Shown one piece after another: positions 27,334 to 62,391 of a stretch of DNA of 64,000 nt. The stretch spans positions 6,080 through 70,079 of the forward strand of contig JBAYGC010000007.1 of the NCBI GenBank assembly GCA_041666845.1. Reading direction: 5' to 3'. The notes beneath the pieces were generated by a model. It was not told where the DNA came from, did not search any database, and was given only the letters and a program-made list of their open reading frames with translations. Both the position numbers and the translations under genes were made by a program. This DNA is from Patescibacteria group bacterium (lineage in GTDB: Bacteria; Patescibacteriota; Patescibacteriia; UM-FILTER-42-10). Each line of letters begins with the position of its first letter. Positions within the stretch are counted from its first letter, which is position 1.

Positions 27334-27345
27334 GATAAGAAAAAT

Positions 27346-30385: not shown

Positions 30386-30391
30386 GGAATT

Positions 30392-30685
30392 ATGAGAAAG
30401 ATAGAAAATCTTCTGGAGGATTCTCTGGTACGTGCCGGAATCGAACAAAAGATAAATACAATGAGGGTAATTTATGAAGTAAAGAAAATATTTCTTGGTA
30501 TGTTTGGGATAAATTCCCGCTATACTATTGTTCCTAAAACGATCAAAGAAAAAATGTTGGTGGTTGAGGTAAGAAATGAATCAGATATCGAAGAAGTTAA
30601 AAATCGCGAAGAAGAGATTCTGGTTGAATTGGAAAATAAACTAAAAAAAACCGCAGTAAAAAGATTGCGCTTCCAAGTAAGATAA
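30392..30685 (+). CDS. DUF721 (DciA-like) small protein downstream of dnaN
   Basis: 97 aa; position and hydrophobic pattern (..RVIYEV...FLGMFG...Y.IVP....K..L.V.V.N...) match DUF721 proteins found next to dnaN/recF/gyrB. Confidence 0.4.
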   Translation: MRKIENLLEDSLVRAGIEQKINTMRVIYEVKKIFLGMFGINSRYTIVPKTIKEKMLVVEVRNESDIEEVKNREEEILVELENKLKKTAVKRLRFQVR

Positions 30686-39400: not shown

Positions 39401-41341
39401 TTAACGGACAACGACCCCGGCATTACCGAAGATGCCCCAGTCCTGTTCGAAGCGGGCTTTGGACCAATAGATTTGTCCGGCATAGGTGTCGTTTAAAATA
39501 ATCTGGGTTGGGTTATCTTTGCTGCCGACATAACCGATGACGGTGCGGGCGTGTTCCCCCTTCCAGGCATAAATATATTTTCCGGCAGGAGTGTGCCAAG
39601 AATCTTCATAACCGGAGCCGTAAACTCCCCACACAACTACCGCATTACCCTTGCTGATTTCTTCCGTAATTTGTGTCACATCCCAGCCGGTGAAGGCCTC
39701 AGAGGGGCGCCAATGGTTGGCCGCTCGGGCGATTGGGTCCCAATAGACTCCGTAGCCGGTTGAGTTCTGCCTGCCACGAATATCGCCGACAAAAGCCTCA
39801 TAAGGATCACCCCATATCGCACCGGAGTGTGACGTAGGGTCGTAACCGACATAAGTCATAATATCACTCTCTGAAACAGAAACACTCTTGCCTGCCAGAG
39901 CCATTTTTAAAGCGGCAGCCTCGCATGATAAGGGTAAATCCTGCAGGTCGCTTGCAATGGCAAGCTTCACTACTTCTGGTTCTGTTGTGAAAGAATATGA
40001 CAAATCTTTTGTCAGATCGAGTCCGTGAACACTTACAATGCCACTTTGGATATTTAAATGATAGTTTGTATTATATTGAAGGGAATTTACCGGTTGAATG
40101 TTTACTGTATTTCCTTCCCAGCGGAAAGTTAATAGAACGCTTGGTTCAAGTGTAATATGTGCCTCGGCGGATACATGGTCCACTTCCTGATCAAATGCAA
40201 TTTGAAGACCGCTGTTTACTCCTACACCGGTAGCGCCGTCGTGCGGTGAAATACGAGAGACTTTAATTTCACCGATGGTTGTAAATTTATATGAAACGGG
40301 TTCTTCAAGATAGCCACCACCTTGAGTTTTTGTATTGGCATTAATTAGTACGTTGTATTCAGTCCCATAAGCCAATTTTTTAGCGGGAGTGACAGTGGCA
40401 ACCATACCATTTTCGGAAAGTGTGATAGTAGGTTTGATATCGGGTTTGACTGATAAATTTGCACGTAAGGATTCCACATCCATTGCCTTAGTGAATGTAA
40501 TCGAAATTGGCGCGTCAATAAAAACCGCTTTCCCGGTTGGTGTCGATTCAGCAATCAGAGGTGGCGCGATTGTTTTAAAAGCGCCTTCATATACTTTCTT
40601 CGGGTCACTTCTGTGGACAACTTCGCGGGTCGTAGTATCACGTGAGACGCCGACACGGTATATAGTTAAATTGTATTTTGCTGACTGCTGTAGCGGTTCA
40701 GTCGGGGTGAGTGTGTAGAGATCATTTGTCTCATTAATTGTTTCTTCAACGGTAATTTCCGGATCAAAGACGAATTCAAACTCAGCAATAGCAGGGTTTG
40801 GTTCATTCAGTTTAATGGTGATGGGGGTGGCCGGCGAAATATCTTGTGAATGTATTTTGGGTACTACCGCCAAAACATCCGGTAGGGGGCTGGTTGTAAA
40901 TAAAAAAGCGGACGAGCTCGTTTTCCCGATTGGTAGCGGGCTTTGTATTTGATTAATATTAACCTGATACTTTGTCTCTGCTAGGAGTGTATGGTTTGGC
41001 ACAAATCGGATGCGCCGGAATAGCTGCTGGTTGAATAACGGTGCCTCGAAATGCCATTCACCTTCTATGTCAGGTGAAATAGATACCGAAAGTGCTCGCC
41101 GATCTACGGGACGACTGAAGTTAATTACAATTGGCGTCTCCAGTTCTACGTTTTCGGTGGTCTGCGGACTAATCTGTGTAATTGTTGGAGTAAATATAAA
41201 GTTTCTTGCCAGGATAATAAAAAGTACCAGCCCGCCGGCTAGTACCCCTAAAATAATGATTGCCCGTGTACGCAAAAAACTTAGATATTTTTTATTAACT
41301 ATGACTTTTTTCGCTTTATCCTCGGTAAAATTTTGCAGCAT
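39401..41341 (-). CDS. Large secreted multi-Ig-like-domain protein with C-terminal C39-like peptidase domain
   Basis: 646 aa; N-terminal TM; repeated beta-rich segments; C-terminal SCEAAALKMAL...H...ND motifs homologous to 36993-37790 product; overlaps GalT-like gene by 26 nt. Confidence 0.45.
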   Translation of the reverse strand: MLQNFTEDKAKKVIVNKKYLSFLRTRAIIILGVLAGGLVLFIILARNFIFTPTITQISPQTTENVELETPIVINFSRPVDRRALSVSISPDIEGEWHFEAPLFNQQLFRRIRFVPNHTLLAETKYQVNINQIQSPLPIGKTSSSAFLFTTSPLPDVLAVVPKIHSQDISPATPITIKLNEPNPAIAEFEFVFDPEITVEETINETNDLYTLTPTEPLQQSAKYNLTIYRVGVSRDTTTREVVHRSDPKKVYEGAFKTIAPPLIAESTPTGKAVFIDAPISITFTKAMDVESLRANLSVKPDIKPTITLSENGMVATVTPAKKLAYGTEYNVLINANTKTQGGGYLEEPVSYKFTTIGEIKVSRISPHDGATGVGVNSGLQIAFDQEVDHVSAEAHITLEPSVLLTFRWEGNTVNIQPVNSLQYNTNYHLNIQSGIVSVHGLDLTKDLSYSFTTEPEVVKLAIASDLQDLPLSCEAAALKMALAGKSVSVSESDIMTYVGYDPTSHSGAIWGDPYEAFVGDIRGRQNSTGYGVYWDPIARAANHWRPSEAFTGWDVTQITEEISKGNAVVVWGVYGSGYEDSWHTPAGKYIYAWKGEHARTVIGYVGSKDNPTQIILNDTYAGQIYWSKARFEQDWGIFGNAGVVVR

Positions 41342-42251
41342 CTTCTGGCGAAACCGAATTAATGATTACCCCAGAGCCAATTTCCACACCGGCCCAAATC
41401 GATCCCCGCGGAGTTATTTTCAGATAGAGATGCTGGTCTTCATCGTTGATCACCTGGTGGAAATAGTAGTTGTAGGGGAGTCCTAGTTCTGCGACTTTGA
41501 GCAAGACTTTTTTTAAAATTTTGGCAAAAGATATTCTTTCCGCGCTAGTCAATACCGTGATATTATCCAAGTGGCGTTTGGGCATGATCCAGATTTCATA
41601 ATTGTGGATGGAGGCGTACGGAGTAAAGGCAATTACGTTTTTGTCTTCAAAGACAAAGCGCGGTCCTTTGCGTTCTTCCTTGATTACATCGCAATATACG
41701 CAGGTTCCCTTTTCCAGTTTATATTCCTGGGTTTTTTGTGATTTATCCATTAGGTGTGGGGGGAGAAACTCGGTGGCGAATACCTGTGAGTGGGAGTGGG
41801 CGACTGACTGACCGGCTTTTCCGCCGTCATTTTTGAAGATTAGGATATATTTAATTTTATCCAGCTTTGAAATCTCATAAGTCCGTTCCGCATAAACGTC
41901 GAAAAGCTTTTTAATGTGGCTCTCTGGTAAATATTCCAATTCAGTCGCGTGGTCCGGCGTTTCAATCACTAATTCCTGAACGCCATAGGCATTAGGATTA
42001 TCCAAAGTAACGGCCGGAAATTTATTTTTGAGCGTCAAAAGTGACCAATTCTTCCCCTGTCCGTCATATTTTCTGATAATCAAATCTTTTTCAATATTCT
42101 CCGGGCAGAAAACACACTTCTTCTCCCTGGTTATTTTGCTGACAATCTGTTCAAAATCATGTGGTCTACTCCCTCGTCGGGGTGCGATGATTACATACTT
42201 GTCTTGAATATAATCTTTTCTTATTTCGGATTTTTGAACGGTTTCGGTCAT
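41316..42251 (-). CDS. GalT-type HIT-family nucleotidyltransferase (galactose-1-phosphate uridylyltransferase/ADP-glucose phosphorylase-like)
   Basis: 311 aa; zinc CVFCPEN (CxxC) and active-site HSHSQ (HxHxQ). Confidence 0.65.
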   Translation of the reverse strand: MTETVQKSEIRKDYIQDKYVIIAPRRGSRPHDFEQIVSKITREKKCVFCPENIEKDLIIRKYDGQGKNWSLLTLKNKFPAVTLDNPNAYGVQELVIETPDHATELEYLPESHIKKLFDVYAERTYEISKLDKIKYILIFKNDGGKAGQSVAHSHSQVFATEFLPPHLMDKSQKTQEYKLEKGTCVYCDVIKEERKGPRFVFEDKNVIAFTPYASIHNYEIWIMPKRHLDNITVLTSAERISFAKILKKVLLKVAELGLPYNYYFHQVINDEDQHLYLKITPRGSIWAGVEIGSGVIINSVSPEDAAKFYRG

Positions 42252-42262
42252 GGTAATTATTT

Positions 42263-43732
42263 TTAATTTAATGATTTTTCGTAAAGCTCAATATATTTTA
42301 GCGCCGACTGAGTCCAGGAGAAATCCTGATTCATACAATTAATCACCAATTTTCGCCAGAGGCTTTTGTCTTTGTATATTTGCAGAGATTTTCTAGTAAC
42401 AGCCAGTAATTCATCGCTTTGGTAATTCTGAAACACAAATCCAGTTCCGGTTCCCAGCTGGGCGTTGTAATTTTGGACGGAATCTTTTAATCCGCCAGTG
42501 GCTCTGACAATCGGTACGGTCCCATAACGCATAGCGATCATCTGACCGAGCCCGCATGGTTCAAACCGGGAGGGCATAAAGAACAGATCGGAAGCAGCAT
42601 ATATTTCTTGCGCCAGGTCAGCGTCAAATCCGATAGTAACCGCCACCTTTTCCGGATGTTTTTCCGTCTCCGCTTTCAATTTTTGTTCCAAAATCGCTTC
42701 GCCGGTTCCTAAAAAGACCATTTGTACTTCCAGTGTAGCAAGTTCATCAATGATTTCAAGAATCAAATCTAATCCTTTTTGGTCTGTCAGTCTGGAGACC
42801 ATGCCGATTACCGGGATTTCCTTGTTTTCGGGTAGGCCGACGGCTTTCTGTAGGATCAGTTTGTTTTCAGTCTTTCTCTCTATTTCTTTAATGGAATAAT
42901 TAATTTTAATTTGCGGATCTGTGGCCGGGTTGAAATGATCCTGGTCGATGCCGTTTAGGATGCCGTACAAATTTTCCTTCCTTTTTGCCAAAGTACCTTC
43001 CAATCCTTCTCCAAATTCTTCAGTCAGGATTTCTTTCGCGTAGGTCGGACTAACGGTGTTAATGATGTTACTGTTCAAAATTGCCTGTTGCAGGAAGTTA
43101 ATATCATTGTTCTTGCCGAACCGCTCACTTAAAGTCGGCCAGTCTTTTTCGGTGACGCCCAATTTATCAAACACTTTCTCCGGGGAACATTTTCCCTGGA
43201 AAGCGAGATTGTGGATAGTCAGTACGGTAGGGAAGTCTGGGCGGTCTTTTTCTTTACTGTGCAGTATCTTAATCATTGGGATCATGATGCTGGCATGCCA
43301 GTCATGACAATGGATAACATCCGGTGTCCATTTCAGCGATCCGAACAGTTCCAAGACAGAACGTGCAAAAAAAGTGAAACGCCTGGTTTCCTTGCCGAAA
43401 TCCCCGCCGATGTCGCCGTAATATATTCCATTTTCACCCAATATTTCAGGATGGTCGACAAAATAAACCGGGACAGAGCTGTTTGGTAAATTAGTTTTCC
43501 AAATGCTGACACTTTCCTCTTTGTTTTTGAAGGGGATTTTGACACTTTCTACAATTTTTTTGAGCCCGTATTTTTTTTCATCAATTACTCCGTATTTTGG
43601 CATGATTACACGGACGTCGATTCCCAGTTGCTTCAATGCTTTGGGTAATGCACCCACGACATCGGCTAATCCGCCTACTTTAGCAAAAGGAGTAATTTCA
43701 GATGCGACAAACAGAACTTTTATTTTCTTCAT
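42263..43732 (-). CDS. glgA: Glycogen/starch synthase (GT5, GlgA)
   Basis: 489 aa; N-terminal KVGGLADVVGALPKAL; C-terminal GT-B with E...GL.Q. Confidence 0.85.
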   Translation of the reverse strand: MKKIKVLFVASEITPFAKVGGLADVVGALPKALKQLGIDVRVIMPKYGVIDEKKYGLKKIVESVKIPFKNKEESVSIWKTNLPNSSVPVYFVDHPEILGENGIYYGDIGGDFGKETRRFTFFARSVLELFGSLKWTPDVIHCHDWHASIMIPMIKILHSKEKDRPDFPTVLTIHNLAFQGKCSPEKVFDKLGVTEKDWPTLSERFGKNNDINFLQQAILNSNIINTVSPTYAKEILTEEFGEGLEGTLAKRKENLYGILNGIDQDHFNPATDPQIKINYSIKEIERKTENKLILQKAVGLPENKEIPVIGMVSRLTDQKGLDLILEIIDELATLEVQMVFLGTGEAILEQKLKAETEKHPEKVAVTIGFDADLAQEIYAASDLFFMPSRFEPCGLGQMIAMRYGTVPIVRATGGLKDSVQNYNAQLGTGTGFVFQNYQSDELLAVTRKSLQIYKDKSLWRKLVINCMNQDFSWTQSALKYIELYEKSLN

Positions 43733-43747
43733 ATTAAATTTTAATTA

Positions 43748-44845
43748 TTATTTGCTGCCTAATTTTTCTTTTAGGAATTCCAGATTACTGGTAGTCTTTC
43801 CGCGGACAGTGGTTAAAAAATTTAATAAATTTTCCGGAGAGGAATTAATCACGCGGTCGGGAGTAACGCCCAACGATTCCAATTTCTTTAATACTTTGAT
43901 CAATCGGACAATTATCCTAACTCCCGGTCCACTGGTCATCCGTTCGATTCGGTATTGATTTAAGATATCAATATCTGCATCACTAGCATCTCCCGCCGCC
44001 CATTTCTTTTTCTCGCCACTGACTTCTGTGCCGCTTGATTTGTACTGGTTGAAATCGTGAGCGTCCAAGTCTAGACTGAACCGCACTCCGCTATTTGCTG
44101 CCATCTCGAGTAGTTTACGGGAAGGTTGGCAATTTAAATTTATTTCAAACGCTTTATTTTGAGCAACCATTTCAGCTAAAATTTCCTGCCAAACACCCCA
44201 GTATTCTTCCCAGTACTCAGGGGATTTTTCCTTGTCTTTTCTGGTGTAGCGGTCAGGATGACCAATCACGTCCACATAACCGTTTCTAACTGTAGCCAGT
44301 AATGACTCTCTAATTGCAGAGGGTTCTTTTTCATTGGCAATAGCATGACGTGAAGCAACAACTAAATCCAGTTTAGCTAAAATTTCATCCGGGACATCCA
44401 CAATTGCCTTACCATCATCATCAAACATGATATTGGCTTCAACACTGGAAAAAGCGATGATATCAAAATTTCCTTCTCGATTGATCCCCTCAATTTCTTC
44501 GGCGCCGGATACTAGTGATTGTGAAATAGAATCTTCAACTGAAAGCTGTTTGGGATGGTGTGTGTCGGAGGCATGTTCGGCAAAAGCTACAAACCGGAGC
44601 CCGATTCTCTGATAATATTCCATAATTTCTTGCGGGCGGTACAATCCTTCGTATTGACCTGTTTCTTCCCGCGTGCTTCTGGTCGAATGGGAATGGGCAT
44701 CGCCCTGCCACCACTTATCTATGTATTGGGTTAATTCTCTCTGCTCACCCGCTTCATCTTCTCTTTGTGGTAGCCCCGCTTGCTCGCGTTTTTTATGTGC
44801 TTCCTCCTGCGGATCGATATATGGTACCGATGGTAGTTCTCTCAT
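43748..44845 (-). CDS. PHP-domain phosphoesterase
   Basis: 365 aa; GDAHSHS, HPDRY, LDLDAHD His/Asp motifs of PHP fold; acidic N-terminal region. Confidence 0.55.
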   Translation of the reverse strand: MRELPSVPYIDPQEEAHKKREQAGLPQREDEAGEQRELTQYIDKWWQGDAHSHSTRSTREETGQYEGLYRPQEIMEYYQRIGLRFVAFAEHASDTHHPKQLSVEDSISQSLVSGAEEIEGINREGNFDIIAFSSVEANIMFDDDGKAIVDVPDEILAKLDLVVASRHAIANEKEPSAIRESLLATVRNGYVDVIGHPDRYTRKDKEKSPEYWEEYWGVWQEILAEMVAQNKAFEINLNCQPSRKLLEMAANSGVRFSLDLDAHDFNQYKSSGTEVSGEKKKWAAGDASDADIDILNQYRIERMTSGPGVRIIVRLIKVLKKLESLGVTPDRVINSSPENLLNFLTTVRGKTTSNLEFLKEKLGSK

Positions 44846-45711
44846 AAATATTTTTTCAAATTATCATAAATAGTATAAGGCATTTTCATATAATCCTGCA
44901 TGCTGTTGACAATATTCCCTCTGGATCTGGTTTCGCTGTGGAAGTCCGATCCACCCGTCATCAGTAAGCCGTGCTTTTTGGCAAAATATTGATAATGTTC
45001 TACCTGGTGCCAGTTGTGATAAGGGGAGATTGCTTCAATGCCTGCCAGCCCTTCTTCTTTAAGTTCCAGGATAATTGTATCTTCTTCCCAGGTCAGTTTG
45101 TGACCCGGGTGGGCCAGAACGGCCAGTCCGCCGGCATTTTTCACTAAGCTAATTGCATCCGGAGTAAGTAGGCTAGTATGTATAATCGGGCAGAATGCTC
45201 TTTTTGCAAAATATTTGTTAATAATTTCAAACAGATCGGGGTCCGGTTTTCCACAGTCTTTTCGGATTAATTCCTTGTTCTCCGGAAAATCGGAAAGCAT
45301 AGCTATAATCTCTGCCACGCTCAAATATTTTGTGATCAGTGAATCAATTTTTTTCCGATCAACGGTAAACCCGTATTCTTCCAGACGATCAAGTGCTTTT
45401 TTGATATTTGCCAAATGTTGCTGCTGAAGTGTATTAAGGGTTCTGTTTAATTCTTGATCATCAAGATTAAAACCATAACCCAGTAAATGCAACCCCTTAC
45501 CCTTATATTCGGTATAAATTTCTACTCCCGGCACCACCGCGACTCCCTTCTTTTCACCAATTGCCATGATTTCTTTAACACCGTAAATTGTATTGTGGTC
45601 GGTTAAAGAAATCGCCAAAATATTTCTTTCAACAACCCGGTTGACCAATTCTTCACAACTCAAATCACCTCCGGAGTATTGAGAATGAAAATGAAGGTCG
45701 CAATATTTCAT
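44842..45711 (-). CDS. PHP-domain phosphoesterase (TrpH/YciV-like)
   Basis: 289 aa; DLHFHSQYSGGD N-terminal motif, later H..H / D.H motifs; 4-nt overlap with downstream PHP gene. Confidence 0.6.
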   Translation of the reverse strand: MKYCDLHFHSQYSGGDLSCEELVNRVVERNILAISLTDHNTIYGVKEIMAIGEKKGVAVVPGVEIYTEYKGKGLHLLGYGFNLDDQELNRTLNTLQQQHLANIKKALDRLEEYGFTVDRKKIDSLITKYLSVAEIIAMLSDFPENKELIRKDCGKPDPDLFEIINKYFAKRAFCPIIHTSLLTPDAISLVKNAGGLAVLAHPGHKLTWEEDTIILELKEEGLAGIEAISPYHNWHQVEHYQYFAKKHGLLMTGGSDFHSETRSRGNIVNSMQDYMKMPYTIYDNLKKYL

Positions 45712-45723
45712 TTTGCTTCTTGT

Positions 45724-46752
45724 TTACAAATTAAGCAATCGCTTTGCTTCAGGGAAGGTGTGGTCGATAATCGTTCTTTGGACCGCCGCTCTGTTTTTTT
45801 TGGTATCAACTAAAATGGAAACACAGAATGCAGTAATCTGCATTACCCACCAGACTTTCCACAAATCGATCTGCTCTTTAGCCGCCTTGGTATTTTGGTT
45901 GGTTTTTTTGAGATAATTTTTCAGAAATATGTCGTGCAATTTGTGAATGGTTTTTAAGGAAGCTCTTTTCTGCCAGCCCAAGAGTTCCATCTGAACAAAG
46001 TAGTTGGCAATATCGCAGAACGGATCAAATTCCCAGGCGTTACCGAAATCTATCACGCCGACATTATCCCCGTTAAATACAATATTATTGGAATTCAGAT
46101 CACCATGGATCAGACAATGCCGATCCGGTCGGTAATATTTTTTATAACGTTTCAGAAATGTTTCCAGGATTAATTTTCCTTCCGCTTCTAATTCCGGAGA
46201 GAATTTTTTGTAGTCAGTGACAAAGTATCCCACCTCTTCTTGTACTCGCTTTAAGGTTTTTGTCCTACCGGCTTTTATTTTTAAATTATGGAATTTAGCC
46301 ACCCAATTGGATGCGAGTAGCGCCTGTTTTTCCAAGCCCGGTTTGCCGTCCAGAATCAAATCAGTGAAAATCTTTCCCGGGTATTCTTCATAGACCAACA
46401 TCCGCCATTTCGGGTAATTACCAAGCGGGCGTGTGATTTGATATTTGCCGCTATCGAAACCCCTGCTGTAGATTGCCTGCATTGCCTGATCGGAATTTTT
46501 TATTTCCCAAGCTTGGTGGGCACTCGGAACATTTGCCCGGATAATTCTTTTTTCCATCCGTCCGTTCGGGTATTCCAGTTTCAGAGTGTAGCGGACGGAT
46601 TTTTTAAATTTATACGGGCTTTGATCTTTCAGTTCAAAACCAACCAGCTTCGCTCCCCTATAGAACTTAGGGATGATAGTCTCTTTAAAGAATTTTTCCA
46701 TAATTCGGATACTGACTGCATGTCGGAGAATTGAACGGTCCGCTTTTTTCAT
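45724..46752 (-). CDS. APH/choline-kinase-fold kinase (possible sugar kinase, maltokinase-like)
   Basis: 342 aa; Brenner motif HGDLNSNN, IDFGNA (DFG-like). Confidence 0.55.
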   Translation of the reverse strand: MKKADRSILRHAVSIRIMEKFFKETIIPKFYRGAKLVGFELKDQSPYKFKKSVRYTLKLEYPNGRMEKRIIRANVPSAHQAWEIKNSDQAMQAIYSRGFDSGKYQITRPLGNYPKWRMLVYEEYPGKIFTDLILDGKPGLEKQALLASNWVAKFHNLKIKAGRTKTLKRVQEEVGYFVTDYKKFSPELEAEGKLILETFLKRYKKYYRPDRHCLIHGDLNSNNIVFNGDNVGVIDFGNAWEFDPFCDIANYFVQMELLGWQKRASLKTIHKLHDIFLKNYLKKTNQNTKAAKEQIDLWKVWWVMQITAFCVSILVDTKKNRAAVQRTIIDHTFPEAKRLLNL

Positions 46753-46765
46753 AATTACTTGGCTT

Positions 46766-48145
46766 TTATTTTTTAGTTAGTTCGCTCTCTTTTTCCTTCA
46801 ATTCGGTAACGCGATCCCGAATTTGCGCCGCTCTTTCATACTCCTGTGATTTGGCTGCGGTGAGCATTTGGTTTTCCAGGTTGCCGACGATTTTATCAAA
46901 TTCAGCTTGCGGAATATAAGGCATTTCGGCGGTAATTCTTTGGGTAACATCTTCATCGGAGAGTTTGCTCAGTTCTTCCACCTTCCCGGACCGTTGCCAT
47001 TCAAATGATTCTTGGATGATGTTTAAATACAGATCACGGGCCTTATCTTTCTTTTTCTGATCAATCGGTAATGTCTGCAGGATATCTTTGAATTCTTTGG
47101 CGCCGACCTCAATCATCTCAATGCTCCACCAAGGTTGTGCGGAAGCCCACCAGTATTGATCGGAATGCACGGCTTTGTCCAAAGCGTTTCTCGCTTTTTC
47201 ATATACAGGTGAATTCTGGTCCATGCCGTTTACTTCTTCAATCGCCATATTGGTCAATTCCCATTGCCAGGTATGGATTTGATTATCGTTGCTTTTCCAA
47301 CGTGAGTATGGCGTATTTCTTTCTATATCTTTTTTCATTAATGCCCAGCTGGAATCAAGTGGTTGTACTTCCGCCTTTTTGGTGAATAACTGATCAACAT
47401 CCGATAGAAAAACGCTTTCCAGTTCCTTCGTTTTGTACAAGTCGAAAAGCAGGTCCTCAAGCCCTGGGCGATGGTGGCCGAAAGTTTCACCGTCCATGGC
47501 GGTAATTAAATACTCTTTTTTATTTACCCGATCGCCCAGCAGTTTGACCAGCATGTCGCTGGAAAAAACACTCATGCCGATTTCAGCGGACAAAATGCGG
47601 AAACTAGTTTCCCGATCGCGGAAATATACATTCAGATTGTTATTGCCTTTGAGCTGATAAATTGTATCGGGTTTAATGGCGCCGGTTGTCCCGTTAAATG
47701 CTAGTTCATCCAAAATAATCCATTTGTAGCCCAGTTTTGATGCGATCTCTCCCACCTTTTTGGCATAGCCCATTTCCGTCGGGAAAAAACCTTTCGGCTG
47801 GTATGATTTACCGAAATATTTTTTGTTGGTCTCGTGATTCAACTTGATCTGCCGCTCAATTTCTTTTTCCGGCATCAACGGGAGAAAAGCATGGTATTTG
47901 GCGGAGTCAGTAAAATCAATCTGGCCTCTTTCCGACAGCATTTTCAAATCCGTAACCACATCCATGCAGCCGTCCCGTTCAAAGAGTTCTACCAATGCGG
48001 CATTGATATTCAGCGTTACTTTTGCTTTAGGGTCCGCTTTTAATCCCTTGGTCAGGCGCCGGTAGCTTTCATTGGCGATTTTTTTAACCCAGTATGATTT
48101 CTGAGTCGGCGGTTGGTAGATGTGTAAAAAATTTATCCAATACAT
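46766..48145 (-). CDS. Glycoside hydrolase family 57 protein with C-terminal UVR-like motif
   Basis: 459 aa; GH57 regions: LHIYQPP, FPTEMGY (nucleophile Glu region), DGETFGHHRPG (Asp region), QYWWASAQPWW; C-terminus IVGNLENQMLTAAKSQEYERAAQIRDRVTEL matches UvrB/UvrC UVR motif. Confidence 0.7.
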   Translation of the reverse strand: MYWINFLHIYQPPTQKSYWVKKIANESYRRLTKGLKADPKAKVTLNINAALVELFERDGCMDVVTDLKMLSERGQIDFTDSAKYHAFLPLMPEKEIERQIKLNHETNKKYFGKSYQPKGFFPTEMGYAKKVGEIASKLGYKWIILDELAFNGTTGAIKPDTIYQLKGNNNLNVYFRDRETSFRILSAEIGMSVFSSDMLVKLLGDRVNKKEYLITAMDGETFGHHRPGLEDLLFDLYKTKELESVFLSDVDQLFTKKAEVQPLDSSWALMKKDIERNTPYSRWKSNDNQIHTWQWELTNMAIEEVNGMDQNSPVYEKARNALDKAVHSDQYWWASAQPWWSIEMIEVGAKEFKDILQTLPIDQKKKDKARDLYLNIIQESFEWQRSGKVEELSKLSDEDVTQRITAEMPYIPQAEFDKIVGNLENQMLTAAKSQEYERAAQIRDRVTELKEKESELTKK

Positions 48146-48156
48146 TATTTTTTCGT

Positions 48157-49380
48157 TTAAGTTTCTTTTTTCCCAGCCATATAGGGCTTATAATTATAAC
48201 CTGCTAAAAACATCTTTTTTTCTTTTTTAGCGCGGCCGGTATATTGCCATTCGTGAGCTAATTTTTTAATTTGTTCAGACAGCAGTCTGGCCTTTTTTAA
48301 TTTACTGATCGGAGGATTCTTTAGTGCATTGATTAAGTCCAGTAGTCGGTTGGCTCCCTCTTCGATTATTTCTACGCTCCACCAAGGGTGAGCTGATGCC
48401 CACCAGAAGAAATCACTGCTCATACTTCTGTCCAACAACGTCCGTGCCGCATCAAAATTTTTATCCTTAGTGGATTCCTTGACAGTGGCTAGTACCAGTT
48501 CAAAAAGTTGCCATTGCAGTTTGTGGATCGGGTTATTCGGATGATCCCATAGTTCAAAAGGAATTCCGTTTTTCAGCTCCTTTTCAGAGGATGCCCAGCT
48601 GGAAGCGAGGGGAGTGATGGATTTAAAGGAACTGTATTGTTTTAGTGCTTCGGAATAGGTTTCTGTTTGGATCTTTTTATCCAGAGTCAATTCTTCAAAC
48701 ACTTTTTCCATTCCCGGACGGTGGTGGCCGAGGGTTTCCCCGTCAAAAGCGGTAAATAAAGGATCACCAGTACAACAAGTTTTCTTAAATACTTTCTTTG
48801 TCTCCATCTGAGGTTTAACAGTAAAAAGATCAGACATATTATGATTACGAAAAGCTACTTTCAGGGGTGTTCCTTTAATTCTGTATCCGTTTTTCCAGTC
48901 AACCACCCCCTTCTTTTTCTGATAGGCTATTTCATCCAGTGCGATCCAGGAAAATTTTTCTTTCACCAGCGCCTGGGCAACTTTTTCGCTGTAGCACATT
49001 TCCGGCGGAAAGAAACCGGAGAGTTGGTAGGATTTGCCGAAATACTTGGTATTAACTTTGGTATTGAGCTGGATCTGGCGTTGAATCTCTGAGACGGGTA
49101 ATTTCGGCAGAATTGTGTGATACATGGCACTGCCTGTAAACTCAATCTGTTTTCTTTCCGCCAGCAGTTTGATCAGATTGATGATTTCACCCAACTTATG
49201 TTCGAATAACTGTTCGGTCAGTGAGCCATTAATATTGAGAGTAATTTTTATCTGGGGGTGTTTTTTTAAAATGCGGAATACCGGTAAATAGCTTTCACGT
49301 GCGACTTTTTTTATTATTTTCACATCCCAGCCCGGTGGCTGGTAAATGTGCAATAAGTTGGCCCAAACGGTTTTGATCAT
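48157..49380 (-). CDS. Glycoside hydrolase family 57 protein (paralog)
   Basis: 407 aa; LHIYQPP, FPPEMCY, FDGETLGHHRPG, DFFWWASAHPWW; about 40% identical to neighbour by eye. Confidence 0.7.
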   Translation of the reverse strand: MIKTVWANLLHIYQPPGWDVKIIKKVARESYLPVFRILKKHPQIKITLNINGSLTEQLFEHKLGEIINLIKLLAERKQIEFTGSAMYHTILPKLPVSEIQRQIQLNTKVNTKYFGKSYQLSGFFPPEMCYSEKVAQALVKEKFSWIALDEIAYQKKKGVVDWKNGYRIKGTPLKVAFRNHNMSDLFTVKPQMETKKVFKKTCCTGDPLFTAFDGETLGHHRPGMEKVFEELTLDKKIQTETYSEALKQYSSFKSITPLASSWASSEKELKNGIPFELWDHPNNPIHKLQWQLFELVLATVKESTKDKNFDAARTLLDRSMSSDFFWWASAHPWWSVEIIEEGANRLLDLINALKNPPISKLKKARLLSEQIKKLAHEWQYTGRAKKEKKMFLAGYNYKPYMAGKKET

Positions 49381-50864
49381 TCCTTGTTAACTAAATAGAG
49401 TTGTTTATTTTTAATAGCCTTCTTATATAACAATTCATATTTCTTTGCCGGGATCTTCCAAGAAAAACTTAACTGCATACTTTTCTTAATTAATTCAATC
49501 CACTCTTCGCGGTGTTTATGATTTTCAATTGCGCGGGTAATGGCGACCAGTAGGTCGCGTGAATCATAAGTCTTGAAAGTGAATCCGTTACCTTTTTGGG
49601 TACGCGGGTTATAGTTGGTAATAGTATCGGCCAGACCGCCGGTAGCTCTGACAATCGGAATTGATCCGTAACGGAGGCTAATCATTTGGCCTAATCCACA
49701 AGGTTCAAACCGGGATGGCATTAAAAACATGTCGGAGCCGGCATAAACCTTTGTGGCATGCTGGCTGTTGAACTGCAAGTGTGCGGCAACTTTCTTTGGG
49801 TACTTTCGGATCAGTTTTTTAAAAAAGGATTCATACTTTTTCTCGCCACCGCCCAAAATTACAACTTGAACATCCTGTCGCATTAACGGGTCCATGATGT
49901 CAAAAATCAAATCAAAACCCTTTTGTTCTGTAATACGCGAGACTACGCCGATCAGAGGAATTTTCGGGTCTTCCGGTAGTTGAAACATTTTTTGCAGATG
50001 CAGCTTATTCTTTGTTTTTAAATGCAAGGAATTAAAATCATAATTTTTGTAAAGTCCCGGATCGGTGGCCGGATTGAAATCATTATAGTCAATCCCGTTG
50101 ACGATGCCGAAAAGATTTTCCTTACGGTTCAAAAGAATCCGATGTAATGCCTGGCCGTATTTTTTGGTCATAATCTCCTGGGCGTACTGTTCGGAAACGG
50201 TGTTGATGATATCCGCATTCACAATTCCTCTTTTTGCGTAATTAATATTTTCAATTGCACCTTTTTCCTTAAAAAGAGGGAGCTTGGTATTACCGTCATC
50301 TTTTTCTCTGGGTTTCAGTTCCCACCAGTTTTTACCCATCTGGAAGGCCAGATTATGAATGGTAAATAACGAACCAGTTTGTTTAAACAGCGGATCATCC
50401 GCAAACCGGGTGCGTAGCAGGAATGGGATTAATCCGGTATGCCATTCATGTGCCTGAATCACATCCGGCCGAAAATTGAGGAACTTTAACAATTCAAAAA
50501 CGGCGACGTTAAAAAAATAAAATCGGAGGTTTTCCGTCTTAGAACCATAAACTTTTTTATGTGAGGAGAAAAAACGCGGGTGGTCAATAAAATATACCGG
50601 CACGCCGGTTGAGAGGGAGCTTTTCCAAAAATCCGCCTTGATGGTTGTCGATTTGTCGATGTATACCGGCACATCCTTCTGAAGCAGTTCCAGCTTGAAT
50701 TTTTTGTCCTGAATCACTCCGTGCAATGGTGTAACGATAATCACATCATGGTTCAGCTTGCGCAAAGCTTTTGGTAAAGAGCGCGCGACATCCGCCAGAC
50801 CGCCGGTTTTGGAGAACGGATCGACCTCTGAAGAGACGCTGACTATTTTGAGTGAGTGCTTCAT
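49377..50864 (-). CDS. Glycogen synthase-like GT5/GT4 glycosyltransferase (second GlgA paralog)
   Basis: 495 aa; KTGGLADVARSLPKAL N-terminus; 4-nt overlap with GH57. Confidence 0.8.
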   Translation of the reverse strand: MKHSLKIVSVSSEVDPFSKTGGLADVARSLPKALRKLNHDVIIVTPLHGVIQDKKFKLELLQKDVPVYIDKSTTIKADFWKSSLSTGVPVYFIDHPRFFSSHKKVYGSKTENLRFYFFNVAVFELLKFLNFRPDVIQAHEWHTGLIPFLLRTRFADDPLFKQTGSLFTIHNLAFQMGKNWWELKPREKDDGNTKLPLFKEKGAIENINYAKRGIVNADIINTVSEQYAQEIMTKKYGQALHRILLNRKENLFGIVNGIDYNDFNPATDPGLYKNYDFNSLHLKTKNKLHLQKMFQLPEDPKIPLIGVVSRITEQKGFDLIFDIMDPLMRQDVQVVILGGGEKKYESFFKKLIRKYPKKVAAHLQFNSQHATKVYAGSDMFLMPSRFEPCGLGQMISLRYGSIPIVRATGGLADTITNYNPRTQKGNGFTFKTYDSRDLLVAITRAIENHKHREEWIELIKKSMQLSFSWKIPAKKYELLYKKAIKNKQLYLVNKE

Positions 50865-50866
50865 AT

Positions 50867-51364
50867 TTATAAATAATTATTTTTTGATACGGCGGAACAG
50901 ACAGCGATAGCTAGTGCATCCGCAGTATCGTCGGGCTTTGGGACAGTTTTCAACTTCAGAATGATTTTGATCATTTTTTGAATCTGTGCTTTTTCCGCCC
51001 GGCCATAACCGCAAATTGTTTGTTTCACTTGGAGTGGGGTGAATTCATGTACTGGTACTTTCGATTGCTCGGCAGCTAAGAGGATTACGCCCCTTGCTTG
51101 ACTAACTGCCAGAACGGTCTTGGCATTTTTAAAGAAAAACAGTTCTTCAACCGAAACAACATCCGGTTTAAATTTTCTAATTATTTTCTGTAGCTCCTTA
51201 TGAATAATCGCTAACCTTTTTTCTAGTGGGAGACTTTTGTCAGTTTCAATGTAACCGTAATCTTTTGCGACCAACTTATCATGAATTCCTTCTACTACGC
51301 CCCAACCGACTAACGCAAATCCGGGGTCGACACCAAGAATGGTGACTGGCTTTTTAATATTCAT
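50867..51364 (-). CDS. ruvC: Crossover junction endodeoxyribonuclease RuvC
   Basis: 165 aa; ILGVDPG...GWGV, catalytic Asp/Glu pattern. Confidence 0.9.
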   Translation of the reverse strand: MNIKKPVTILGVDPGFALVGWGVVEGIHDKLVAKDYGYIETDKSLPLEKRLAIIHKELQKIIRKFKPDVVSVEELFFFKNAKTVLAVSQARGVILLAAEQSKVPVHEFTPLQVKQTICGYGRAEKAQIQKMIKIILKLKTVPKPDDTADALAIAVCSAVSKNNYL

Positions 51365-52079
51365 AATTTGAATAAATATTGGTTACCTCGTCGTTATTCT
51401 CCAACTCTTCCAGTAAACCGGTTATTTTTTCTGGATCGGATACATCGGATTTAGTCAGAATAGTCTTGGCAACCGGGTCGACACTGGCATATTCGACTGT
51501 ATACCCCTTCTCAATTAAGGACTTGTTGATACTTTCCAGGCTTTCCGGCGTGGTGTAAATGGTAAAGCCATCAGATTCCTCTTTAATATCCTCAGCCCCC
51601 AAGTCGATAAGCTCCAATTCGACTGCTTCTTTCTGGCTGTTTTCAGGAGCAGTGACCAGTAAAACACCCTTTCTTTCAAACATCCAGCTGACACTGCCAT
51701 TTTCCGCTAAACGGCCGTTTTTTTTGCTAAGAATAGCCCTAATTACCGGTGCAGTGCGGTTTTTATTATCGGTGAATGATTCGATTAATATTGCTACACC
51801 ATCAGGTCCGAACCCTTCATAGACCACTTCATCAATTTTTCCTTCAGAACCCTCGCCCGTGCCTCTCTTTATTGCCCTTTCGATGTTTTCTTTGGGCATA
51901 TTAGCCTGTTTTGCCTTGTCAATTGTGAGACGCAATTTAAAGTTCGTATCAGGATCTCCACCCCCTTCGCGGGCTGCCAGAGAGATGGTATTCGCTATTT
52001 TAGTAAAAATTGTGCCTTTTTTGGCATCGGTAACGCCTTTTGCTCTTTTAATTGTTGACCATTTGGAATGTCCGGACAT
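51354..52079 (-). CDS. yebC: YebC/PmpR family DNA-binding transcriptional regulator
   Basis: 241 aa from internal ATG (MSGHSKWSTIKRAKG canonical N-terminus); track ORF extended to 52127. Confidence 0.85.
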   Translation of the reverse strand: MSGHSKWSTIKRAKGVTDAKKGTIFTKIANTISLAAREGGGDPDTNFKLRLTIDKAKQANMPKENIERAIKRGTGEGSEGKIDEVVYEGFGPDGVAILIESFTDNKNRTAPVIRAILSKKNGRLAENGSVSWMFERKGVLLVTAPENSQKEAVELELIDLGAEDIKEESDGFTIYTTPESLESINKSLIEKGYTVEYASVDPVAKTILTKSDVSDPEKITGLLEELENNDEVTNIYSNYEY

Positions 52080-52169
52080 AAAAAATAATATTATTAAATA
52101 TTTGATAGTACCTTTATAATATAGCAAAAAAACGGGCTAAAGTCAATGTTAATTAAAATCATATTTTGC

Positions 52170-52223: not shown

Positions 52224-53294
52224 ATGAATCAACTGGATGACCAAAAAAAGATCGAAGCTAGGGATACGGGGCATGTTTTAGAGACGATTTCTTTACTACC
52301 GAAGCAAATTCAGCAGACATGGGAAGATGTTCAGAATGTCACAATACCCAAATCATACCGTTCAGTACAAAATATTGTGGTAAATGGCATGGGTGGCTCA
52401 GGATTGGGCGCTCATATTTTGTTTTCGCTTTTTTATGACCAACTGCCGGTGCCTTTACGCGTGGTACATAGTTATACCATGCCGGCCTACGTCAATAAAA
52501 AGACACTTTATGTGCTGTCCAGTTATTCGGGGACGACTGAGGAGCCGCTTTCGACCGCCAAAGAGGCATTGAAACGAGGCGCCAAAGTAATTGGGATAAC
52601 AACCGGGGGTGAAGTTAAAGATTTTTGTCTGAAAAACAATTTGCCATGCTTTTTATTTGACCCAGTTTATAATCCGTCCAACCAGCCGCGGATGGGTGTT
52701 GGATATTCTGTGTTTGGGATATTGGGGTTGCTTAAACGCTGCGGAATAATCGATCTTGATGAAAGAGATGTTAATAGAGTAATAACTCACCTCAACCTGA
52801 TGATTCGAAAGTTTTCGGCCAATATTACAACAGCTAAAAATCCTGCCAAACGAATCGCCGAAGAACTGCATGGCACAATCCCGATTTGTGTTGCAGCGGA
52901 ATTTCTGACCGGAAATGTGCATACGCTTACTAATCAGTTAAATGAAAACAGCAAGAATTTTTCCGCGTACTTTTTACTTTCGGAACTGAATCATCATTTA
53001 TTGGAAGGATTGGCGGCGCCGAAGATTGTACCGCAGGCTCTGCGATTTCTATTTATTGAATCGGCATTGTATCATCCGCGCAATAAGGTAAGATTTCCGA
53101 TTACAAAAAAAATAGTAAAAAAGAATAAGGTTGAATTTTCTTCATATCAGGCCGAAGGGAAAACAAAATTACTCCAATCTTTTGAAGTGTTATTGTTCGG
53201 AAGCTACCTTAGCTACTATTTGGCGTATTTGAATCATGTTGATCCGGTTAAAATCCCGTGGGTTGATTATTTCAAGAGAGAACTGAAGAAATAA
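52224..53294 (+). CDS. Bifunctional phosphoglucose/phosphomannose isomerase (SIS domain, archaeal-type PGI/PMI)
   Basis: 356 aa; SIS nucleotide-binding GMGGSG...; two SIS-like halves. Confidence 0.7.
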   Translation: MNQLDDQKKIEARDTGHVLETISLLPKQIQQTWEDVQNVTIPKSYRSVQNIVVNGMGGSGLGAHILFSLFYDQLPVPLRVVHSYTMPAYVNKKTLYVLSSYSGTTEEPLSTAKEALKRGAKVIGITTGGEVKDFCLKNNLPCFLFDPVYNPSNQPRMGVGYSVFGILGLLKRCGIIDLDERDVNRVITHLNLMIRKFSANITTAKNPAKRIAEELHGTIPICVAAEFLTGNVHTLTNQLNENSKNFSAYFLLSELNHHLLEGLAAPKIVPQALRFLFIESALYHPRNKVRFPITKKIVKKNKVEFSSYQAEGKTKLLQSFEVLLFGSYLSYYLAYLNHVDPVKIPWVDYFKRELKK

Positions 53295-53330
53295 TATAAT
53301 AATCGTTTTCCGCCCTCATGCCTTGGAAAA

Positions 53331-53370
53331 GATTCTTATTCCCATGCTTGATAAGAATCAATTCTTTTAT
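53331..53370 (+). terminator. Hairpin + T-run after pgi/pmi (GATTCTTAT ... ATAAGAATC, then AATTCTTTTAT)
   Basis: 9-bp perfect stem 53331-53339/53351-53359, 11-nt loop. Confidence 0.4.
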
Positions 53371-53398
53371 AAGGTGCGGGGGCGTTTGGATTAAAATA

Positions 53399-55018
53399 AT
53401 GAAGGACAGTTTGAAAAAAATTATTAATCATATTACTAAAAGTAATTTCCCGTATACTTATTTGGTAATTTTTACTATTGCATTCGGAATTTTCTTTTAT
53501 ATCCAGTATACGCCGGCCTTTCCGGATCCCGATTCCTTTTACCACATGAAAATGGCCCTGCTGATCAGGGATGGCAATCTGGGCCAGGGTTTTCCCTGGC
53601 TCTCGGACTATACTATTCTAGGCAATGCATATACTGACCAGCATTTGCTTTATCATGTATTTCTCATTCCTTTTGTCACTTTGTTTACACCGGCGATCGG
53701 AATAAAAATCGCAACTGTTTTTTTGGGTGCGACATTAATAACAACTTTTTATTGGTTGCTGCGAAAAGAAAAGATTAGATTTGCCTGGTTTTACAGCTTA
53801 TTATTGCTATTTGTGGAACCATTTACTTTTCGGATCAGCCTGGCCAAAGCGCCCTCAGTGTCCATAATATTTTTACTGCTAGTGCTATGGTGTCTTTTCC
53901 GTTACCGGATGAAACTTTTATTTATTTTATCGACGATCTTTGTTTGGGCATATGGCGGATTTTTATTGACCGTAGTATTTGCCGGACTTTATGGGGTGGT
54001 TAATACCCTTTTTGATTTAAGAAAAAATAAAGTAACTGGATTATTAAAACACTATTTTGGGCATGAAAAATCCTGGGTGAAAAAAGTATTGACTGGGAAA
54101 GAGTTAGGTATGGTTCTGGTCAGTGTCGCGGGTATAATGGTCGGTTTGGTGATCAATCCGTATTTCCCGAATAACCTGTCATATTACTGGGCGCAACTGG
54201 TTCAAATCGGGATTGTAAATTATCAGAATATAATCGGGGTAGGTGGTGAATGGTATCCGTATTCAGTCACTGAGCTGGTACCGAATACAGTGTTTCTTTT
54301 TTTAATTTTATTGGCAGCGTTTGTAATCTTTTTCGTTACAATCAAAAAACAAAACAGCAAATCGGTCACGCTTTTGATTCTGACTGTTTTCTTTTTGGCT
54401 TTAACTTTGAAATCACGCCGGTATGTGGAATATTTTGTACCGTTCAGTATGCTATTTAGCGCGTTTGCTTTAAGTCCATTTTTGGCGAAGGTAAGTGTTA
54501 CTGGGATGTTAAAAAAAATACCTTCTTTTTACAACAGTCGGAAGATAATTTTTACCATTCTATTGGTTTATTTTGTGGTAACAATTCCAACAATTGCAAT
54601 TCGCGATCTTAAACAGGAAAGAAATAGTTTTAAGAATGGAATTCCTTATAATAAATTTGAATCGGCCAGCAATTGGCTAGAGAATAATACCCCCGAAGGC
54701 TCTATTGTACTCCATAGCGACTGGGATGAGTTCCCGATTTTGTTCTATCACAACTCACACAATCACTACATTGTAGGTCTGGATCCGACCTTTATGTATA
54801 TCCATAATGAAGATTTATACTGGAAATGGGTGAACATAACCATTGGTAAGGAAAGTAGCGCTTTGTATGATATAATTACCAAAGATTTTAACAATGCAAC
54901 AGTGTTTCTGGAAAAGGATCACACCGCAATGGATCTGAATTTCCAGCAGGATTCTCATTTTAAGCTAGTATATGAGGATGCTGAAGCTAAAATTTATCAA
55001 ATATCCGATAATCAATAA
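53399..55018 (+). CDS. Polytopic membrane protein, GT-C-fold glycosyltransferase-like (YfhO/ArnT/PMT-like)
   Basis: about 540 aa from ATG 53399 (track start 53318 precedes terminator hairpin); more than 10 predicted TM segments followed by soluble C-terminal domain. Confidence 0.45.
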   Translation: MKDSLKKIINHITKSNFPYTYLVIFTIAFGIFFYIQYTPAFPDPDSFYHMKMALLIRDGNLGQGFPWLSDYTILGNAYTDQHLLYHVFLIPFVTLFTPAIGIKIATVFLGATLITTFYWLLRKEKIRFAWFYSLLLLFVEPFTFRISLAKAPSVSIIFLLLVLWCLFRYRMKLLFILSTIFVWAYGGFLLTVVFAGLYGVVNTLFDLRKNKVTGLLKHYFGHEKSWVKKVLTGKELGMVLVSVAGIMVGLVINPYFPNNLSYYWAQLVQIGIVNYQNIIGVGGEWYPYSVTELVPNTVFLFLILLAAFVIFFVTIKKQNSKSVTLLILTVFFLALTLKSRRYVEYFVPFSMLFSAFALSPFLAKVSVTGMLKKIPSFYNSRKIIFTILLVYFVVTIPTIAIRDLKQERNSFKNGIPYNKFESASNWLENNTPEGSIVLHSDWDEFPILFYHNSHNHYIVGLDPTFMYIHNEDLYWKWVNITIGKESSALYDIITKDFNNATVFLEKDHTAMDLNFQQDSHFKLVYEDAEAKIYQISDNQ

Positions 55019-55662: not shown

Positions 55663-55666
55663 GTAT

Positions 55667-57651: not shown

Positions 57652-57684
57652 AAATTTCTCTAATTTCTGTTTTCTGATTGAGAT

Positions 57685-60671: not shown

Positions 60672-60676
60672 CAAAT

Positions 60677-62365: not shown

Positions 62366-62391
62366 TATAATATAATCACCATTATAAAGAC

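Follow-up and report, generated by a model that had tools for sequence, protein, structure and literature searches.

The classical GlgC-GlgA-GlgB system of bacterial glycogen metabolism is built on GT5 synthases of the ADP-glucose type, with synthetic and degradative genes clustered. Both traits recur in a 64,000-nt stretch (the window) of contig JBAYGC010000007.1, from the Patescibacteria assembly GCA_041666845.1, in which the genes between ruvC and a gene for a GalT-type HIT nucleotidyltransferase (GalT-like) encode two GT5 synthases, two GH57 enzymes, a kinase of the APH fold and two PHP proteins. The locus differs from the classical system in that GlgC, GH13 GlgB, GlgP and GlgX are missing from the cluster, the window and related loci; instead it has two GT5 paralogs, minimal GH57 enzymes in the place of GH13, and an additional APH-fold kinase and GalT-type HIT protein. 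We read it, with a probability of about one half, as an alpha-glucan (glycogen-type) island in which nucleoside diphosphate (NDP)-glucose is supplied by the GalT-like enzyme and a kinase branch is coupled to GH57.

Other described systems each resemble one part of the locus. In the GlgE pathway with TreS-Pep2(Mak) of mycobacteria and pseudomonads, an enzyme of a glycoside hydrolase family and an APH-fold kinase are fused to each other or lie side by side in an alpha-glucan cluster, and treS/pep2, a fused glycoside hydrolase-maltokinase gene, is a precedent for this design. The hydrolase of our locus is, however, a GH57 enzyme and not the GH13 enzyme TreS, its kinase is not specifically related to Mak, GlgE is missing, and maltose-1-phosphate chemistry would be hypothetical. 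The ADP-glucose phosphorylase At5g18200 of the plant Arabidopsis (PDB 1z84) and the GalT of P. aerophilum (PaGalT, 6k5z) share with the GalT-like protein the fold of the GalT branch of HIT proteins, two CxxC metal sites and a similar length, and the HSHSQ nucleophile motif of At5g18200 is identical to that of the window protein. Unlike them, the GalT-like protein is encoded by a bacterial backbone gene beside a glycogen synthase, and its identity of 35-36% to either does not assign a substrate (ADP-glucose/phosphate or UDP-hexose/hexose-1-phosphate). The bifidobacterial GNB/LNB pathway pairs NahK, an APH-fold anomeric kinase, with the GalT-type transferase GalT2, and the AmgK-MurU salvage route follows the same logic, leading through an APH-fold anomeric kinase and a nucleotidyltransferase to an NDP-sugar. 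In both, as might be the case here, the sugar-1-phosphate made by the kinase is converted to an NDP-sugar by a nucleotidyltransferase; the sugars, however, are N-acetylhexosamines or MurNAc, the kinases and transferases belong to other subfamilies, and no glucan synthase draws on the product. Short GH57 enzymes of the amylopullulanase/alpha-amylase type, such as AaApu of Aquifex aeolicus (9jlr), are also among the closest systems.

All of the families involved are known already and carry generic NCBI names; it is as a combination that the module is undescribed in the searchable literature. A search covering glycogen in Patescibacteria (the candidate phyla radiation, CPR), GH57 and bacterial ADP-glucose phosphorylase returned no description of the module, of GH57::APH-kinase fusions or of a pairing of GlgA with a GalT-like protein in CPR. 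Papers on CPR make generic statements only, and the surveys consulted score GH57 as 'starch degradation'. The genes of the island and the backbone gene that flanks it are the following:

49377..50864, minus strand: GlgA2, GT5 glycogen/starch synthase of 495 aa, first gene of the island (Glyco_transf_5, 2.4e-64, and Glycos_transf_1)
48157..49380, minus strand: GH57a, minimal GH57 alpha-glucan hydrolase/transferase of 407 aa (PF03065, 3.5e-31)
46766..48145, minus strand: GH57b, GH57 paralog of 459 aa with a C-terminal UVR hairpin motif (PF03065, 4e-32; UVR, 5.3e-10 at aa 418-451)
45724..46752, minus strand: small-molecule kinase of the APH fold (eukaryotic-like kinase, ELK, fold), 342 aa, core member of the island (PF01636, 1.4e-10; HGDLNSNN)
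44842..45711, minus strand: PHP289, PHP phosphoesterase of the TrpH/YciV-Cv1693 type, 289 aa, recurrent accessory gene (PF02811, 1e-12, 49.1 versus 26.4 bits)
43748..44845, minus strand: PHP365, divergent PHP-like phosphoesterase of 365 aa (PF02811, 20.9 bits against a cut-off of 26.4)
42263..43732, minus strand: GlgA1, GT5 glycogen/starch synthase of 489 aa, last gene of the island (Glyco_transf_5, PF08323, 9.5e-77)
41316..42251, minus strand: GalT-like, GalT-type HIT nucleotidyltransferase of 311 aa, backbone gene flanking the island (GalP_UDP_transf, DUF4931_N, HIT)

According to open reading frame (ORF) calls and profile searches, these genes lie within a run of 12 co-directional minus-strand genes that extends from 52127 to 37823 in the order yebC, ruvC, GlgA2, GH57a, GH57b, APH-fold kinase, PHP289, PHP365, GlgA1, GalT-like, Big_5/Peptidase_C39 and murJ. 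Sorted by size, the intergenic distances from yebC to murJ are -26, -11, -4, -4, 2, 9, 11, 11, 12, 13 and 15 nt, and the region is a single operon-like block. An earlier note, made from the sequence of the window, had described ten genes with gaps of at most 12 nt; the tight co-directional block stands, whereas the count is 12 and two gaps measure 13 and 15 nt. The ORF coordinates given there are exact, and the motifs CxxC, HSHSQ and HGDLNSNN and the UVR domain that it quoted were all found.

The two synthases pass the glycogen synthase profile TIGR02095 with 564.9 bits (GlgA1) and 502.8 bits (GlgA2) against a cut-off of 328.45. The donor-binding K-x-G-G-L motif is kept as AKVGGLADV and, in GlgA2, as SKTGGLADV, and SRFEPCGLGQM is present in both. 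Judged by these profiles and motifs, both are members of the ADP-glucose-type GT5 family with their catalytic residues kept. They are paralogs of 45% identity, as are the two GH57 enzymes at 39%. The latter score 109.1 and 112.1 bits with PF03065 against a gathering threshold of 21.2, and the catalytic Glu127 and Asp213 align with Glu123 and Asp214 of TLGT and do not vary in two alignments. The catalytic Glu in conserved sequence region (CSR) 3, the catalytic Asp in CSR-4 and all five CSRs were found in 46 of 46 Patescibacteria homologues. In a structure prediction with a 4-sequence alignment as input, a (beta/alpha)7 barrel is followed by a helical bundle, as expected of the GH57 fold. The alpha-glucan module of two GT5 and two GH57 enzymes proposed in the earlier note is thus borne out by Pfam and NCBIfam, and both GH57s appear catalytically intact.

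The branching activity that had been considered for the GH57 enzymes is a different matter. The published fingerprint of GH57 branching enzymes consists of Leu at logo position 23, Phe and a non-aromatic residue at positions 35-36, and a length of about 520-546 aa (Martinovicova & Janecek 2018, PMC6037648). Both window enzymes have Thr at position 23, where their relatives vary between T, I, M, N, V and L (Leu in 2 of 46), and positions 35-36, at the end of CSR-5, are WW in all 46 Patescibacteria homologues. With 407 and 459 aa, the two proteins are also too short. Because of the WW at the end of CSR-5 and the near-constant lack of Leu23, a branching assignment is not supported; by the published logos the fingerprint suggests an amylase- or amylopullulanase-like enzyme, branching being still possible biochemically. 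The UVR motif of GH57b is a recurrent trait: among about 13 ORFs of the GH57b type at other loci, its YERAAQxRD-type motif is exact in 8 and carries one substitution in 2 more, and Pfam confirmed the domain in all three such ORFs tested from other loci. Two GH57b+UVR proteins of about 710 aa (L048:4494-6623 and L073:4443-6569) have an extra C-terminal region of about 240 aa without a family match.

The comparison of genome neighbourhoods was anchored on the GalT-like protein, for which 80 genome loci were retrieved; 51 of these contain complete ruvC-GalT intervals. The protein is 59-98% identical across these loci, which represent several Patescibacteria lineages, and the conserved backbone reads (PGI)<- yebC-ruvC-[island]-GalT-like-(tyrS)<- ROK-PBP1, where PGI is a phosphoglucose/phosphomannose isomerase. 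At least one GlgA is present in 33 of the complete intervals, GlgA together with GH57 in 30 and both GlgAs in 28, with GlgA2 found in 32 and both GH57 types together in just 4. Where both GlgAs are present, the kinase accompanies them in 25 of 28 islands. The commonest order is GlgA2-GH57-kinase-(~195-aa P-loop-like ORF)-GlgA1, and the core order GlgA2-GH57-kinase-GlgA1, as in the window, is shared by lineages whose GalT-like proteins are only about 60-80% identical. Genomes that carry the island include JBAYGW01 (SO_2016_GW1_134, the 98% relative), JACKFO01 (HK-STAS-PATE-4, on a contig of 842 kb), MHKS01 and JBAZSB01; the complete chromosome OZ246408.1 is an example of one that lacks it. A GlgA lies directly upstream of the GalT-like gene in 38 of the 69 loci with enough upstream sequence, at a distance of 11 nt in the window. 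To judge from these neighbourhoods, the arrangement goes well beyond anything that chance would give; accidental co-linearity of genes in a compact genome is rejected in view of the order kept across lineages and the gene fusions described below.

The same comparison indicates that the glucan genes form an island at an insertion hot spot and that the GalT-like gene belongs to the backbone, because ruvC and GalT-like are directly adjacent in 12 loci and other loci have different sugar genes at this junction. The latter include GH15, GDE_C/GH100-like and ROK proteins, GT4 glycosyltransferases (one of them of TIGR02149), a pyruvyl transferase and ATP-grasp proteins. The earlier note had counted the GalT-like gene as a member of the module, which does not hold: it is a backbone gene, and in 12 of the 51 loci it stands beside ruvC with no glucan gene present.

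Some features of the related loci deserve mention in their own right. The ~195-aa ORF (for example L033:7905-8486) carries a Walker-A-like GAELSGKS motif and occurs in 15 islands, mostly between kinase/GH57 and GlgA1; it matches neither Pfam nor NCBIfam and does not occur in the window, where the PHP genes fill the slot. In one island (L009:5893-7116), a GT4 of the actinobacterial glgA_Coryne family (TIGR02149, 493 bits), a family that presumably includes the maltose-1-phosphate synthase GlgM, stands beside two GT5 synthases. Many metagenome-assembled genome records titled 'uncultured Gammaproteobacteria bacterium' (OZ246408.1, CAYHOD01, CAZZDA01; L014, L018, L063) have the typical Patescibacteria backbone, with GalT-like proteins 58-68% identical to that of the window, and their organism labels look wrong.

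Gene fusions provide a further link between the kinase and the glucan genes. At least 6 proteins are GH57::kinase single ORFs of about 735-753 aa (L011:6755-8998, L037:6640-8880, L074:2777-5014, L083:6748-8976, P0177 and P0195); Pfam confirmed both domains in four of them (L011, L083, P0177, P0195), and the remaining two were assigned by ORF length and a kinase-like C-terminus. The GH57 domains of the fusions retain their catalytic residues. P0177 and P0195 came from a kinase-profile search of 1.84 billion representatives, which found 156 close members at E<=1e-30 and a family centred on Patescibacteria, with many tandem double kinases and one kinase::PHP fusion. This exhaustive search was used in place of word-indexed homologue searches, which had returned only 9 and 24 matches because the family diverges fast. 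Kinases of Patescibacteria lineages that share the island order are only about 22-26% identical. Where the sources name its members, they do so only as 'phosphotransferase', 'aminoglycoside phosphotransferase family protein' or 'thiamine kinase-like enzyme'. When relatives of the kinase, and not GalT-like, serve as the anchor, the look-ups again reach islands of the form ruvC-GlgA-GH57-kinase-(PHP)-GlgA. The place of the kinase in the glucan module, already suggested in the earlier note, is thereby upheld by its conserved position, the fusions and these look-ups. As far as gene order and fusion can show it, there is a functional link between the kinase and GH57, and a looser one between the kinase and PHP289. 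The four GH57::kinase loci each have an island with a single GlgA; all four carry GH15, and three a pyruvyl transferase.

The kinase itself is typical of its fold. Its catalytic motifs HGD..N and IDF(G) are invariant, as are D218, N223 and D235 across the alignment, and the AlphaFold2 model (mean confidence, pLDDT, 91.6) confirms the predicted APH/ELK fold. NCBIfam and PDB matches are non-specific and comprise APH(2''), Bud32, thiamine, homoserine and MTR kinases at E-values of 1e-8 to 1e-2. A Foldseek search with the model gave a flat list of PsiK, an antibiotic kinase, MTR kinase and choline kinase (TM-scores of 0.5-0.65, 10-17% identity). The resemblance to maltokinase that had been proposed for this protein is therefore not sustained, as the sequence and fold searches of the PDB recover only the generic APH/choline-kinase/MTR-kinase fold. 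TreS and GlgE, the partners of maltokinase, have no counterpart either, in that no GH13 gene occurs in the window or among the annotated recurrent island families.

PHP289 is a recurrent accessory of the kinase. It is present in 8 of the 51 loci, or 8 of the 33 islands that contain GlgA, and its slot is always between kinase and GlgA1, even across lineages that share no more than about 65-79% identity in their GalT-like proteins. The kinase::PHP fusion P0282 (L087:10001-11923) has 640 aa, and its PHP half is 32% identical to full-length PHP289 (E 7e-40). The best PDB match of PHP289 is Cv1693 (2yb1; 4.8e-23 over aa 3-266), with RNase AM (7ug9) as a further relative; against NF041577, the profile of 3',5'-nucleoside bisphosphate phosphatase, it scores 133.6 where the cut-off is 400 and is no equivalog. 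PHP365 is more divergent: its assignment draws on PRK07945 (7e-19), the PHP domain of PolX (2e-16), PDB matches to YcdX and PolX at about 1e-4 and an H-x-H motif in DAHSHS. It shows no similarity to the PHP half of P0282, is confined to contigs of the same species and the 98% relative L004, and to judge from this distribution is a recent lineage-specific insertion. Of the two tandem PHP proteins that the earlier note had placed in the pathway, PHP289 keeps its place through the fusion and the 8 of 33 islands, while PHP365, found in a single lineage, loses it.

The supply of the glucosyl donor is another point at which the locus departs from the classical system. Genes of the GlgC, GlgB(GH13) and GlgP types, whose lack had been noticed before, are indeed absent from the 64-kb window, the rest of the contig and the surrounding 10 kb on either side at about 85 related loci. 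The sugar-nucleotidyltransferase motif G-G-x-G-[TS]-R-L occurs in no ORF of the window or the loci, NTP_transferase is not found in their gene tables, and no galK or galE partner occurs in the conserved neighbourhood. The GalT-like protein is by its sequence a candidate NDP-glucose supplier. Its residues H152-S-H154-S-Q156, C46xxC49 and C184xxC187 are invariant among homologues and align with the motifs of 1z84 and 6k5z, its best PDB matches being 1z84 (4e-43) followed by 6k5z (1e-33). It passes TIGR00209, the galT equivalog, marginally (107.7 against 102.1) and fails PRK11720 (119 against 448). It had been described earlier as GalT-type, of the class that includes ADP-glucose phosphorylase; the HIT assignment and the CxxC and HSHSQ motifs hold, and the identities, 35% to ADP-glucose phosphorylase and 36% to PaGalT, favour neither enzyme.

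In the mechanism that we propose, GlgA1 and GlgA2 would polymerise alpha-1,4-glucan from an NDP-glucose donor. The adjacent GalT-like enzyme would make or recycle NDP-glucose from glucose-1-phosphate via a covalent histidine-nucleoside monophosphate (His-NMP) and so replace a pyrophosphorylase; candidate reactions are ADP + glucose-1-phosphate <-> ADP-glucose + phosphate, or an exchange with another NDP-hexose. The GH57 enzymes would cut or rearrange the glucan, and the kinase would phosphorylate a sugar that is a product or a substrate of GH57 (for example glucose, maltose or a maltooligosaccharide), most likely at the anomeric position. It is the anomeric hydroxyl that receives the phosphate in Mak, NahK, AmgK and MtnK, the known sugar kinases of the APH fold. 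The product of the kinase would return sugar to the pool of 1-phosphates and NDP-sugars, and PHP289 may hydrolyse a phosphoester in the same branch. A more ambitious version, a non-canonical alpha-glucan cycle in which a HIT-type phosphorylase or transferase regenerates NDP-glucose from glucose-1-phosphate with no pyrophosphorylase involved and GH57 is coupled to a phospho-sugar branch of kinase and PHP, we consider rather improbable. That branch could be an anomeric gluco- or maltokinase that feeds the pool of 1-phosphates or, in its strongest forms, a GH57-based counterpart of GlgE or a bacterial glucan kinase/phosphatase pair.

Several points weigh against the reading of the locus as an island with GalT-supplied NDP-glucose and a GH57-coupled kinase branch. 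In 12 of the 51 loci the GalT-like gene adjoins ruvC, lacks any glucan gene in the surrounding 10 kb and is equally conserved, and its function therefore cannot be island-specific. The protein clears the NCBI cut-off for the GalT equivalog, and it is as close to the P. aerophilum protein deposited and cited as class I GalT (36%) as to At5g18200 (35%). An ADP-glucose phosphorylase running in reverse amounts, together with GlgA, to a net glycogen phosphorylase and needs a high ratio of glucose-1-phosphate to phosphate, and this reading of the enzyme therefore calls for caution. A canonical glgC, galU or pgm may sit elsewhere in the genome, and no recognisable branching enzyme is encoded in the island. 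The substrate of the kinase is not indicated by its sequence or predicted fold: the top 50 Foldseek matches include no entry that we recognised as a maltokinase or NahK, and the PDB phmmer matches at E<=1 none recognised as a maltokinase. The closest characterised relatives of PHP289 work on nucleotides or RNA (pAp phosphatase, RNase AM), and the gene for the fusion P0282 is located outside any glucan island, beside riboflavin genes and about 7 kb from the GalT-like gene of that locus.

Much of this would also fit ordinary glycogen genes fed by a canonical GlgC or GalU encoded elsewhere, with the GalT-like protein as a housekeeping Leloir-type enzyme or NDP-hexose exchanger that happens to flank an insertion hot spot. 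The direct adjacency of ruvC and GalT-like in 12 of 51 loci, the unrelated sugar genes at the same junction elsewhere (GT4s, ATP-grasp, pyruvyl transferase), the pass with TIGR00209 and the 36% identity to PaGalT are all as this explanation would have them. It accounts less well for the lack of any GlgC- or GalU-type gene in the 64 kb or within 10 kb on either side at about 85 loci, for the GlgA that immediately precedes GalT-like in 38 of 69 loci, and for the missing galK and galE in the conserved neighbourhood; we regard it as possible, with the odds against it. A similar doubt concerns the PHP proteins, which might be mere passengers, PHP289 as a housekeeping enzyme of the pAp phosphatase/RNase AM type and PHP365 as an unrelated protein, co-transcribed through the compactness of CPR genomes. 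Cv1693 and RNase AM as the best characterised relatives of PHP289, the restriction of PHP365 to one lineage and the lack of a PHP gene in most islands are in keeping with this. The constant slot of PHP289 between kinase and GlgA1, in lineages as far apart as about 65-79% GalT-like identity, and the existence of a fusion of the kinase with a PHP289-type domain speak against it. For the pair as a whole the explanation is doubtful; taken by gene, a passenger role is likely for PHP365 and possible for PHP289.

Two further explanations give the kinase a more specific role. In a GH57-based analogue of GlgE, the kinase would make maltose-1-phosphate or another oligosaccharide-1-phosphate, which a retaining GH57 enzyme would use as the donor to extend the glucan. 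The catalytically intact GH57 domains of the fusions, in parallel to the treS/pep2 fusion of the GlgE pathway, would fit, as would the GT4 of TIGR02149 in one island and the absence of both GH13 GlgE and GlgB. We nevertheless think it very unlikely, with a kinase that lacks specific similarity to maltokinase and two synthases of the NDP-glucose type already present, and we know of no GH57 enzyme that uses a sugar-1-phosphate donor. Alternatively, the glucan might be phosphorylated reversibly, the kinase acting on the polymer, PHP removing the phosphate and GH57 binding the glucan, by analogy with GWD and SEX4 in plants or with laforin in mammals. The adjacency of a kinase and a phosphoesterase, fused in P0282, would fit, as would the fusion of the kinase to a catalytic domain that binds glucan. 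That domain is catalytically intact, however, which suits substrate channelling better than mere targeting; PHP289 occurs in just 8 of 33 islands, the kinase::PHP fusion lies away from glucan genes, and reversible glucan phosphorylation has to our knowledge no bacterial precedent. Such a scheme is hardly probable at all. The reading that we retain is an alpha-glucan island with the GalT-like enzyme as the candidate source of NDP-glucose and a kinase coupled to GH57.

The Patescibacteria form a very large and nearly uncultured group with minimal genomes, whose carbon storage and sugar activation are mostly inferred from generic annotation. The island is widely conserved, clonable and testable, with two glycogen synthases, minimal GH57 enzymes, a dedicated kinase and a GalT-type enzyme where GlgC would be expected. 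If the proposed chemistry is right, alpha-glucan metabolism would gain either a new way of making NDP-glucose or a new step through a phospho-sugar, and a function could be given to a Patescibacteria-centred APH-kinase family of 156 representatives.

The island is bordered upstream by housekeeping and sugar-phosphate genes:

50867..52127, minus strand: yebC and ruvC, housekeeping pair heading the block and upstream boundary of the island (Pfam TACO1_YebC and RuvC)
52224..53294, plus strand: bifunctional phosphoglucose/phosphomannose isomerase (PGI), NCBIfam PRK08674 family at 1e-78, under the equivalog cut-off

The yebC-ruvC pair is the upstream anchor kept in the 51 loci. PGI is its divergent neighbour, upstream of yebC, and is kept in many loci; its context is one of hexose-phosphate supply. 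For yebC (51354-52127, minus strand), the mechanical ORF from a TTG codon has 257 aa, and gene callers choose a start that gives 241 aa. A promoter-like TTGACT-17-TATATT at 52146-52118, a consensus match only, agrees with the shorter start of 241 aa. The scans for promoters and terminators did not rise above background, and none of the conclusions draws on them. At the other end, the gene at 39401-41341 (minus strand) encodes a protein with four Big_5 domains and Peptidase_C39_2 and shares 26 nt with the 3' end of the GalT-like gene; in a JGI copy of the contig it is split into 98 and 533 aa, by a miscalled start or a frameshift variant. A ROK-family sugar kinase and a HAD hydrolase are found a few kb downstream of the block.

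Farther away, the window contains a replication-origin region (25900-30400) with dnaA (27700-29067) and dnaN (29279-30385) on the plus strand and, opposite to them, rnpA-yidD-yidC on the minus strand. Cumulative GC skew reaches its minimum at about 26-28 kb, and the glucan island is about 12-22 kb away from the origin. A tRNA trio (Ala-GGC, Ala-CGC and Arg-CCT; 24230-24874, minus strand) occupies the sole region of any size that lacks long ORFs. At 11902-13917, the minus strand encodes a membrane H+/Na+-translocating pyrophosphatase (PF03030), which bears on the pyrophosphate economy if a pyrophosphorylase route to NDP-glucose is absent. From 53318 to 64000 and beyond, the plus strand carries co-directional genes for GT2 and GT87/MptA-like membrane glycosyltransferases, DUF2079 and large proteins without a Pfam match. 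This block resembles a cell-envelope glycan cluster, which would also need NDP-sugars or lipid-linked sugars, and type IV pilin genes come next.

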